Assembly: GCA_016218025.1 (NCBI GenBank)
Contig: JACRFD010000079.1
Coordinates: 243 to 64,242 of the forward strand
DNA length: 64,000 nt
Reading direction: 5' to 3'
Source of the DNA: Ignavibacteriales bacterium
Lineage (GTDB): Bacteria; Bacteroidota; Ignavibacteria; UBA10030; SZUA-254
This document shows positions 37,068-38,840 of the stretch, piece by piece. The notes beneath the pieces were generated by a model. It had not been told where the DNA came from, did no database searches, and saw nothing but the letters and a program-made list of their open reading frames with translations. Each line of letters begins with the position of its first letter. Position 1 is the stretch's first letter. The position numbers were made by a program, and so were the translations under genes.

Positions 37068-38840
37068 ATGTCTCGTCAATTAAAAATATCGATCTTCACG
37101 ATTATCTTATTAATCTTGGGAGGTATCTTTCATATCGCGTTGGCGAAAATAAATTCTTTTGATGGACCACCAACTATTTCGAATATAAGCGTTAATAAGA
37201 TTACTGGCAACACTGCCGAACTTTATGCTTATGTTCTTCCTAACGGTGCGGAGACAACCATTTGGATGGAATGGGGGGAATCGATTCAATATTCAAAACA
37301 AACACAACCATTAACCTCCTTCTGGAGCGAAGGAATTCAAGTTTCCAAATCAATTTATGAACTAAAACCGATGACAACATATCATTTCCGAGTAGTTTCT
37401 CAGAATGAATCTGGAATAACTTACGGCAATGATACAACATTTACAACGACAAACGGTTTTCTCTTGAGTATACCACTGAAAACATATGCCTATGATATTA
37501 CCAAGACATCTGCAAAGTTATACGTCAAGAGTAAAGTAAATGGATTCGACTCATATTTTTACTTCGACGGAGGTGCCCCACTAATGGATGCATTTCTTGA
37601 TATCGGCAAAGTAGAACTGGGATCGGGATTAGGTGTGGTGGAAACAACTTTTGTGCTCACAGGTTTAATTCCAAATACAGTCTATAAATATAAGATTGCA
37701 TTGTGGACTTCATATACTTACTTGTTTGGAGAAGAAGCGTCGTTTATTACATCACATGATTCCTCAGTTCAGGGATTGATCATTCCGATTAAAATCAGTG
37801 ATAATATGGAGAGGATTCATATCCGCCGGTTTGGAGTTCACAGCATGGCGACCTATTGCGAAGATCGCAAATTGGATGAGTGGCAATTACCCCCACCGCC
37901 TCCTTATAATGCTTTTGATACAAGATTTCTTGTTTCATGTCTGAGTTTAGGTACATACACAGATATCAGAGAATACTACTCGCCAACACAGATCGATACA
38001 TATAAATTGAAATTTCAAACTGATTATGAAAGGGGATATCCCGTTATTTTATCATGGCACGGATTAAGCGATCTGTATTCTGGAAAAGTTTCTTTGATAG
38101 TATTTGGTGACACGATTAATATGAAGGAAGTCAATTCTTACAGCATTGAAAATCCCGACGTTGCTGTTATCCGAATAATTGCACAAGGTCCCTGTCCGGT
38201 TGCTCGTGCACCCTTGGCTATTACTGGTGTGGCAGGATTAGTGGGACAGAAACATGGACAACTGAAGTCTCAAATTAATCCGAATGGTTTAGCGACAAAT
38301 TCTTGGTTTGAGTGGGGCACTACACCGGAATACGGAAACACTACTACGATACAAGGAGTTGGTAACGAGGCTGGATATCTACCGATGGAAGATTTTTTAT
38401 TTGGATTAGAAGGAAATGCAAAATATCATTATCGGGTTGTTGCGCAGAATTCAAGCGGAACATTGCAAGGAGAGGATAAATCGTTCATAACTTCGTCGGC
38501 ATTGGGTATACCATTAACGGAGTCAATACCTGTTAAATATTCTTTATCACAAAATTATCCTAACCCGTTCAACCCGACAACAGAATTCGAATTTCGGATT
38601 GCAGATTTCTCCGCCGAAGGCGGATCCGCCTCTGGCGGAGGATTTGTTTCTTTAAAAGTGTATAATCTTCTCGGTCAGGAAGTGGCAACAATAGTGGGCG
38701 AAGAGATGAAACCCGGAAGCTACAAGGTTGCATGGGATGCGAGCCAGATGTCGAGCGGAGTTTATTTCTACCGCTTGCAATCAGGTGCTTCGACTGGCTC
38801 AGCATTCACAGATGTGAAGAAAATGGTGCTAATGCGATAA
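37068..38840 (+). CDS. secreted Fn3-like repeat protein with sorting domain (carries two in-frame palindromic inserts)
   Basis: Repeated PNG..T..W.EWG...YHFRVV modules; QNYPNPFNP domain containing SAEGGSASGG and ASTGSA inserts. Confidence 0.85.
   Translation: MSRQLKISIFTIILLILGGIFHIALAKINSFDGPPTISNISVNKITGNTAELYAYVLPNGAETTIWMEWGESIQYSKQTQPLTSFWSEGIQVSKSIYELKPMTTYHFRVVSQNESGITYGNDTTFTTTNGFLLSIPLKTYAYDITKTSAKLYVKSKVNGFDSYFYFDGGAPLMDAFLDIGKVELGSGLGVVETTFVLTGLIPNTVYKYKIALWTSYTYLFGEEASFITSHDSSVQGLIIPIKISDNMERIHIRRFGVHSMATYCEDRKLDEWQLPPPPPYNAFDTRFLVSCLSLGTYTDIREYYSPTQIDTYKLKFQTDYERGYPVILSWHGLSDLYSGKVSLIVFGDTINMKEVNSYSIENPDVAVIRIIAQGPCPVARAPLAITGVAGLVGQKHGQLKSQINPNGLATNSWFEWGTTPEYGNTTTIQGVGNEAGYLPMEDFLFGLEGNAKYHYRVVAQNSSGTLQGEDKSFITSSALGIPLTESIPVKYSLSQNYPNPFNPTTEFEFRIADFSAEGGSASGGGFVSLKVYNLLGQEVATIVGEEMKPGSYKVAWDASQMSSGVYFYRLQSGASTGSAFTDVKKMVLMR
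38610..38639. repeat. 30-bp palindromic element inserted in frame
   Basis: tccgccgaaggcggatccgcctctggcgga is absent at the aligned site of the paralogous domain (29788-29794). Confidence 0.85.
38787..38804. repeat. REP-like gcttcgactggctcagca element in frame
   Basis: Replaces a single AAA codon relative to the paralog (29938-29940); encodes ASTGSA. Confidence 0.75.

Follow-up and report, generated by a model that had tools for sequence, protein, structure and literature searches.

The Rickettsia palindromic elements (RPEs) described by Ogata et al. in 2000 are said to be about 100-150 bp long and restricted to Rickettsia, and to lie both between genes and in frame within them, where they are reportedly tolerated as surface-exposed segments. 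The SDR repeats of heterocystous cyanobacteria, described by Elhai et al. in 2008, reportedly measure about 21-27 bp and larger and have no transposase of their own. Paquin et al. are said to have found, in 2000, double-hairpin elements in Allomyces mitochondria, which we compare below together with the GC clusters of yeast mitochondria. In-frame palindromic repeats are on record both as RPEs and as intragenic GTAG/CGTC repetitive extragenic palindromes (REPs) (Di Nocera, De Gregorio and Rocco 2013, PMC3733652). The latter are stem-loops of 20-40 bp, mostly intergenic, some of which lie wholly within open reading frames (ORFs), many of them in genes for replication and repair (PMC3733652). Small GIY-YIG nucleases of the Ssn type are flanked by cognate NTS/SRM hairpins, which are cut as single-stranded DNA, and their function is reported as modulation of transformation, not as insertion of the repeats into genes or tRNA loops (Chenal et al. 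2025, PMC11893778). Here we analysed a stretch of 64,000 nucleotides from the genome of an Ignavibacteriales bacterium (the window), in which the gene at 37068..38840 carries two different palindromic modules, here called DH and LH, inserted in frame into its C-terminal sorting tail. Both inserts are probably copies of small dispersed hairpin modules that are copied into sites and precisely lost from them without target duplication. Inside genes, these two apparently mobile families persist almost only where they are read as short flexible loops of Gly, Ser and Ala.

Two inserts in one sorting tail

The window corresponds to positions 243-64242 of contig C68 in a draft genome of 2.58 Mb (38.5 % G+C, 91 contigs), and all its features discussed here lie on the + strand; features elsewhere are given by contig and position. 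The host gene (ORF 37068..38840) encodes a 590-aa predicted cargo of the type IX secretion system (T9SS) with FN3-like repeats and a C-terminal sorting domain. This T9SS type A domain spans 100 aa including both inserts (38538..38837), as delimited with a hidden Markov model built from the 129 tails of the genome. Residues 497-575 of the 590 match PF18962 with 27.5 bits (cut-off 27) and TIGR04183 with 28.2 bits (cut-off 23). A paralogous C-terminal domain (29719..29976; PF18962) belongs to a neighbouring gene for a PLD-like protein (26689..29976). It is empty at both sites and scores 35.6 bits against PF18962. Outside the inserts the two tails share 86.3 % of their DNA sequence, and their alignment shows one gap of 30 columns and one of net 15 columns, with the frame kept.

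The 30-bp DH insert (38610..38639, tccgccgaaggcggatccgcctctggcgga) consists of TCCGCC-GAA-GGCGGA followed by TCCGCC-TCT-GGCGGA, encodes SAEGGSASGG and sits at TTC^GGA. Its ends are unlike the flanks, therefore its position is unambiguous and there is no target-site duplication; the alternative boundaries with a duplicated GGA, considered in the preliminary description of this locus, are not needed. The 18-bp LH segment (38787..38804, gcttcgactggctcagca) encodes ASTGSA in place of AAA, a single Lys codon, and has its core TTCGACTGGCTCA at 38789-38801 between TGC and GCA stems. The corresponding empty sites of the paralog, found by alignment, are CAGATTTC^GGATTTGTT for DH (29783..29799, insertion point between 29790 and 29791) and TCTGG-AAAA-TTCACT, with the Lys codon, for LH (29932..29946). 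The preliminary description had given both inserts as frame-preserving and had taken the paralog as an internal empty-site control. Its coordinates proved exact, and further pairs of filled and empty sites were found among paralogs and orthologs.

The tail target sequence for DH is GATTTCGGATTT. The insertion point is preceded by a degenerate tract of GATTTCG-like heptamers (38583..38609) that encodes EFEFRIADF and was recognised from the sequence and by comparison with the paralog tract. In this subfamily of tails the stretch DFGFRISDFGF is built of about five tandem 7-bp units (GATTTCG), located at 29764-29797 in the paralog and at 38583-38609 and 38640-38645 in the host gene, with DH lying within the tract. 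At least four tails of the genome have such a tract, and slippage of a 7-bp unit within a coding sequence could shift the frame. Reversed, the tract reads IRNPKS, a peptide also present in the PolA loop of the same-genus genomes G001 and G002.

Orthologs of the host gene in relatives (L002-L004), 43-48 % identical over the body of the protein, have unrelated tails without the inserts. The closest relative of the host tail is the tail of the neighbouring, unrelated PLD-like gene. Since the true orthologs have unrelated tails, the sequences suggest that tails are also exchanged between genes; they appear to be swapped or homogenised inside one genome. A search of other assemblies recovered no further contig encoding exactly the host protein.

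To place the inserts in the fold, we used an AlphaFold2 (AF2) model of the 100-residue tail based on an alignment of 54 tails from the source genome (mean pLDDT 83.3, pTM 0.76). The model has six strands (14-21, 35-42, 48-57, 60-67, 74-83 and 90-98). The DH peptide (residues 25-34) falls entirely inside loop 22-34, between strands 14-21 and 35-42, and the LH peptide (residues 84-89) forms the loop joining the last two strands. Both inserts are thus predicted to lie in beta-hairpin loops, in line with the earlier suggestion that they occupy loops; pLDDT is 66 at the DH peptide, 74 at the LH peptide and 93-97 in the core. The model fits the beta-sandwich fold of about 70-100 residues seen in T9SS type A sorting domains, and among the PDB structures retrieved with Foldseek there were only generic Ig-like sandwiches (best E = 1.9e-3); a PorU chain ranked 31st. 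Two loops of this sorting signal appear to be tolerant of 6-10 extra residues.

Structure, copies and sites of the DH and LH families

The preliminary description treated the first insert as one palindrome. Its two hairpins are indeed jointly near-palindromic around GGATCC, but the insert is better described as two tandem perfect hairpins of 15 nt, each with a 6-bp stem and a 3-nt loop. All DH copies in the genome follow the pattern T-S-M-GCC-NNN-GGC-K-S-A, twice. The stem variants CCGCC, GCGCC, CAGCC and GAGCC are each perfectly complementary to their own partner, i.e. the variation is compensatory. As single-stranded DNA the copy of the host gene folds with -13.4 kcal/mol (z = -3.8). A single long imperfect hairpin is a competing fold for copies of the TCC/TCC type. 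In other copies the stems of the two halves vary independently, which favours two hairpins as the conserved form.

A genome search found about 22 DH copies in the source genome, most of them intergenic, and the strict pattern (a degenerate 30-mer of about 40 bits) had 13 matches there against roughly 5e-6 expected. Copy numbers in 41 related genomes range from 0 to 16, with DH present in 25 of them, and the reversed-pattern control gave no match in any of the 41. We also scanned one genome per species across phyla, where the same 40-bit pattern should match about once by chance, and recovered at least 120 loci. The matches listed include Patescibacteria, Kiritimatiellae, Verrucomicrobiota, Omnitrophota, Ignavibacteriota, Bacteroidota, Gammaproteobacteria, Binatia, Chlorobi and others, and also a Woesearchaeota bin. 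The possibility that the elements are unique in this genome and its relatives, raised in the preliminary description, does not hold; both DH and LH are dispersed families.

Some DH copies are parts of larger arrangements. At G033:C9:42419-43008 five copies are spaced by exactly 140 bp, which indicates that DH is embedded there in a longer tandem repeat. A three-hairpin form, in which another GC-rich hairpin, CCTGCCCGTCCGGCAGG, separates the two units, occurs at C22:183213-183263, in frame in PolA as FPPEAPACRTGRDAPSAQ, and at C25:41466-41520, upstream of a CinA-like gene. The copies at C22:81369, C22:216116 and C60:86921 have a longer flanking repeat in common (..ctcgagttcatagtttcatcatagagtatcg-DH-agagaacc..), so at these places DH sits inside a larger repeated unit.

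In-frame copies were identified in five genes of the source genome: the host gene, a second T9SS tail, a 979-aa serine hydrolase (on C58, again SAEGGSASGG), an aminotransferase and PolA. In the second tail (C29:44788) DH lies in a different loop and reads SAEGGSASGR, where a stem mismatch avoids TGA. Among the cross-phylum matches listed, 37 of 126 DH copies lie deep within open frames of at least 150 aa. Their hosts include real proteins, namely DnaE, PheT (two copies), a class I aminoacyl-tRNA synthetase, Mfd (two copies), UvrB and HsdR. The TCC-type copies within ORFs (n = 28, among the same listed matches) are split 27:1:0 over the three stop-free frames, in favour of S-A-x-G-G-S-A-x-G-G over the alternatives PPxADPPxAE and RRxRRIRLxRR. 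The coding bias foreseen in the preliminary description is therefore present, and extreme in its preference for the Gly/Ser/Ala frame, and a strong selection filter acts on DH from Patescibacteria to Proteobacteria. The unit TCCGCC-NNN-GGCGGA is self-reverse-complementary apart from its loop, and consequently reads S-A-x-G-G on either orientation.

Comparisons of filled and empty sites show clean insertions of both DH and LH without duplicated bases. In G002, a genome of the same genus, the empty paralog has an ortholog with an identical 30-mer at the same TTC^G site and no LH; the two DH copies agree at 30 of 30 positions while their flanks agree at 86 % (p about 0.01 given this divergence). 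The serine hydrolase has a filled site in G000 (SAEGGSASGG) and G001 (SAKGGSASGG), a decayed one in G004 (FAKIGSASGG) and an empty one in G002, the closest ortholog with 90 % aa identity, as well as in more than 20 other genomes. The PolA insert is confined to the source genome (none of 29 relatives). We considered whether DH or LH could be a miniature inverted-repeat transposable element, a class with terminal inverted repeats and target-site duplication, and rejected this as the insertions lack duplicated bases.

The outward flanks of 272 DH element ends read R-A-A, with A or G in 83 % at position 1, A in 76 % at position 2 and A in 54 % at position 3. Empty sites, namely TTC^GGA in the tail, TAC^AAC and TTC^AAT in the hydrolase, and TTC^AAA and TTC^GAA in tRNA fragments, already hold these bases. 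The flanks therefore represent a target preference, TTY^RAA, and not a part of DH. The string AATCC on the outward flank was also considered as part of the target; it is 7-fold enriched yet present in just 6.6 % of flanks, and we do not claim it.

LH is built differently. It conserves a 13-nt core, TTCGACAAGCTCA, flanked by short stems of variable sequence. The core TTCGAC-NN-GCTCA, with 11 specified bases, occurs 24 times in the source genome against about 1.2 expected by arithmetic. The second insert, likened in the preliminary description to a repeat of other bacteria, is a copy of this core-plus-stem module with a short stem. Between genes, a variable 7-bp stem (GTCACGC, GTCATGG, GTCACCC and others) encloses the core in a hairpin, and such copies often form inverted pairs. 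Seven of the 129 T9SS tails contain LH; in all seven it occupies the last loop, always with the same orientation and frame, and is read as PSTSSGQ, PSASSGH, SSSSSGE, ASTGSA or TSTGS. Their stems are 3-5 bp long and compensatory (TCC/GGA, TGC/GCA, TAC/GTA). Paralogs with filled and empty sites are C55:116940 and C55:112613 (93 % identity, 24-nt insert) and C83:16101 and C34:3835 (80 % identity, 21-nt insert). Across genomes the LH 15-mer TTCGACAAGCTCAGG is not significant alone, as about 1100 chance matches are expected in 596 Gb by arithmetic, and cross-phylum LH was judged by the flanking stems. Complementary flanking stems of at least 3 bp, typically CCC...GGG, accompany 111 of 139 cores. 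In open frames the cross-phylum copies encode FDKLR, LSLSKG, PELVEG, LRQAQ and PSTSSG.

Mini GIY-YIG nuclease genes and tRNA fragments

Both families are statistically and physically associated with genes of mini GIY-YIG nucleases, a link that goes beyond the preliminary description, as does the one to tRNA T-loops. Nine single-domain GIY-YIG genes of the source genome are intact, with called lengths of 87-129 aa, and fragments are present besides; several of the genes abut tRNA genes. Within 500 bp of a mini GIY-YIG gene we found six of the 22 DH copies, where 0.10 are expected and none of 5000 permutations reached as high a number, and four of the 24 LH copies (0.11 expected). DH lies on both sides of the GIY-YIG gene C22:81094-81357 and downstream of C68:68686-68946 and C80:85824-86093, and four LH copies bracket the gene C58:64148-64501. 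In the cross-phylum scan a GIY-YIG ORF was located 0-177 nt from DH at seven of 120 loci among the matches listed, and near LH at one of 120 (L290, with five LH copies). The two LH-flanked nucleases, C58 and L290, are sister proteins (support 0.99), separate from the DH-adjacent nucleases. Across 41 genomes the DH copy number correlates with the number of GIY-YIG genes (rho = 0.62, p = 2e-5), and genomes with DH have on average 7.1 GIY-YIG matches compared with 2.7 in genomes without it.

At the tRNA-Pro and tRNA-Ser nuclease loci a duplicated 3' part of the tRNA lies downstream of the nuclease gene, with DH exactly in the T-loop. When DH is removed in silico, the duplicated parts match the neighbouring tRNAs at 43 of 44 and 34 of 35 positions (BLAST). 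The sequence of the tRNA T-arm hairpin is GCGGGTTCAAATCCCGC. ARAGORN recognised no tRNA at the DH-bearing loci, either intact or with DH excised. Two such cassettes, with the order tRNA, mini GIY-YIG gene and duplicated 3' tRNA part, occupy C68:68284-69290, about 4-5 kb past the end of the window, and C80:85735-86108. The T-loop sites are TTC^AAA (Pro) and TTC^GAA (Ser). The C68 cassette has an additional GIY-YIG gene ahead of tRNA-Pro and an additional DH nested within another stem. The mini GIY-YIG proteins match only PF01541 in Pfam (55-73 bits); NCBIfam gave just a sub-threshold match, to a group I intron endonuclease, and nothing above cut-off, and no PDB entry was retrieved by sequence with a mini GIY-YIG protein as query.

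We propose that the mini GIY-YIG nucleases mobilise DH and LH. Candidate mobilisers would be the single-domain enzymes of about 90 aa whose genes lie beside tRNA genes with the same modules flanking them, and by analogy with the Ssn nucleases they may recognise the DH and LH hairpins in single-stranded DNA as their substrate. DH, the 30-bp double hairpin, would land at sites of the TTY^RAA type, and LH would move as its 13-nt conserved core with short stems of variable sequence. Copies within genes would be retained only where they leave the frame intact, introduce no stop, fall into a surface loop and encode small flexible residues, and for DH the reading S-A-x-G-G on both orientations would double the chance of a harmless landing. 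T9SS tails, 129 per genome, would offer many permissive beta-hairpin loops, and similar tails would exchange sequence; permissive loops together with this exchange could explain why the host tail holds one copy of each family. As a tentative extension, DH may be a complete 30-bp mobile element, put at TTC^RAA, the sequence of the tRNA T-loop, by the GIY-YIG nucleases of about 90 aa from tRNA-gene cassettes, with a sequence shaped to yield a neutral S-A-x-G-G linker either way and colonising essential genes across phyla. LH may then represent another element of this kind, served by a nuclease clade of its own, and the two may jointly form a class of nuclease-dependent mini-elements that has not been described before and differs from the published Ssn motifs. 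The earlier interpretation of the inserts as mini-elements that colonise proteins in frame is supported by these data, and the enzyme is what we infer in addition.

Several points weigh against this picture. Most copies are solo, as 111 of 120 DH loci among the matches listed and 119 of 120 LH loci, examined as loci of up to 8 kb, are without a GIY-YIG gene. The correlation between genome counts of DH and GIY-YIG genes ignores phylogeny, and we know of no strand transfer by GIY-YIG nucleases. The evidence consists of presence and absence at sites, and no movement was observed. The three related tails are equidistant (85-86 %), so that gain and precise loss are inseparable there. The LH copy of the host gene has a stem of only 3-4 bp and folds with -1.3 kcal/mol, no better than shuffles, and the presence of LH in the same loop of seven tails could come partly from exchange between tails and not from independent insertion. 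Coding copies were defined by open frames of at least 150 aa and not by annotation, and the assembly is a draft with an estimated completeness of 85 %.

Alternative explanations and comparison with known systems

The modules could instead be REP-type elements mobilised by Y1 tyrosine transposases (RAYT or IS200-like), a mechanism that has been proposed for GTAG-tagged REPs and for REPINs. The source genome does encode Y1_Tnp proteins, at C65:96857-97201, C60:97262-97606 and C25:34434-34760. About 1 kb separates the C65 gene from a single hairpin, TCCGCCTCAGGCGGA, and three hairpins with a GCC-NNN-GGC core, GATGCCGTAGGCATC, lie directly upstream of the C60 gene. The latter, however, are of a different sequence; spaced at 137 bp (C60:96831-97606), they form a separate family with its own candidate enzyme, the Y1 protein. 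No DH or LH copy flanks any of the three Y1 genes, the GTAG tag is absent from both modules, and a Y1 homolog was found at just one of 120 DH loci among the matches listed and one of 120 LH loci, whereas GIY-YIG genes adjoin DH at seven. We therefore rejected mobilisation by Y1 enzymes as highly improbable. It is also unlikely that selection keeps the hairpins for a function, for instance in termination, mRNA stabilisation, pausing or protein binding; in the tail loops such a role could be to slow translation. Such a role would agree with the compensatory stem changes in both families, with the identity of the tail DH between species across diverged flanks, and with intergenic DH copies in A/T runs, e.g. 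TTTTTT-DH-AATTTTT, which look terminator-like. On the other hand, orthologous sites are occupied patchily between genomes of the same genus, 16 of 41 relatives have no DH copy, the host genes are unrelated to one another, the hydrolase copy of G004 has decayed, and function leaves the insertions in duplicated, broken tRNA fragments unexplained. An Rfam scan of 37000-39600 at E <= 1 matched no family.

A history without recent mobility, in which each module entered an ancestral tail once and was then spread by duplication or conversion among the 129 tails, would account for some of the observations. The orthologs of the host gene have unrelated tails, which implies that the host gene received its tail by a swap or by conversion. 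In G002 another gene is occupied at the same DH site, and LH lies in one loop in all seven LH-bearing tails. As the sole route it is nevertheless very doubtful and we rejected it. The LH-bearing tails are not one another's nearest kin; the nearest paralogs of those on C55, C83 and C68 (93 %, 80 % and 86 % identical) are empty, the net insert lengths differ (24, 21 and 15 nt), DH lies in different loops of the two DH-bearing tails, and the same modules are found in non-tail genes and in intergenic DNA. Exchange between tails can cover the spread among tails only and not the families themselves. An artefact, i.e. an assembly or chimera error or a contaminating synthetic linker, comes to mind since GGATCC is a BamHI site and GGSASGG is linker-like, and literature matches for GGSASGG were indeed only synthetic linkers or other unrelated peptides. 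We rejected this explanation, too, as next to impossible. Hundreds of independent assemblies, produced by many studies and spread over many phyla, contain DH, and its copies vary naturally and change in a compensatory way. Assemblies made independently for other species have the identical 30-mer at the same site of a homologous domain, related species have filled orthologous sites, one of them in decayed form, and further copies lie in intergenic and tRNA-fragment contexts. Dispersed modules that are copied into sites and precisely lost from them thus remain our preferred explanation for both inserts.

For the question of how tiny repeats of this kind move and why they are tolerated, DH provides an unusually clean data set, with a defined target, TTY^RAA, several filled and empty pairs and the tRNA T-loop as one of the targets. 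The physical and numerical link to genes of mini GIY-YIG enzymes, putative relatives of the Ssn nucleases, opens the mobilisation of CGTC-like, transposase-less REPs to direct biochemistry. For annotation, the peptides SAxGGSAxGG, PSTSSGQ, FDKLR and LSLSKG would become recognisable as repeat-derived.

A literature search with the peptide and DNA sequences yielded no publication about DH or LH, and keyword matches led only to the general REP and Ssn literature. With the Ssn systems our families share small single-domain GIY-YIG genes flanked by a dispersed hairpin repeat, and nuclease clades that pair with different hairpins. We also tried to assign DH and LH to the SRM itself; the pattern HGTCWY-N(0-2)-YYVSBRH-N(0-5)-WNVSBRG-N(0-2)-RNCYNB was unmatched by either module on either strand, in canonical or in-gene form. 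In the source genome this pattern had six matches, against six in a shuffled sequence, and none near a GIY-YIG gene. The likeness to GTAG/CGTC REPs lies in short stem-loops within replication and repair genes, here PolA, DnaE, UvrB and Mfd. Unlike those REPs, DH and LH have no tag. The DH units start with T-S-M-GCC, and the (C)GTCA with which some LH stems start is part of the stem and not an unpaired tag as in CGTC REPs. The dimensions of both modules fall outside the tabulated CGTC families (8-9 bp stems, 4-5 nt loops; PMC3733652). DH is moreover a fixed tandem pair and LH conserves its loop and not its stem, which also sets them apart from REPs.

SDR repeats resemble our modules in their precise sites, absent from orthologs and including sites within genes, but differ in sequences and taxa. 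To our knowledge, no double-hairpin architecture, nuclease association or comparable single-frame bias has been described for them. The Allomyces and yeast elements are, like DH, G+C-rich two-hairpin modules in an A+T-rich genome that occur in intergenic DNA, in RNA genes and in frame in protein genes; those are organellar and lineage-specific, with unrelated sequences, and we know of no enzyme shared between them and our modules. The RPEs, to which the preliminary description compared the inserts, provide a good analogy in behaviour, as palindromic repeats located between genes and in frame within functional protein genes. The analogy does not extend to family membership. DH measures 30 bp and LH about 19-27 bp, both occur across phyla and their sequences are unrelated to RPEs, and DH differs further in its near-exclusive use of a single frame with the same reading on both strands.

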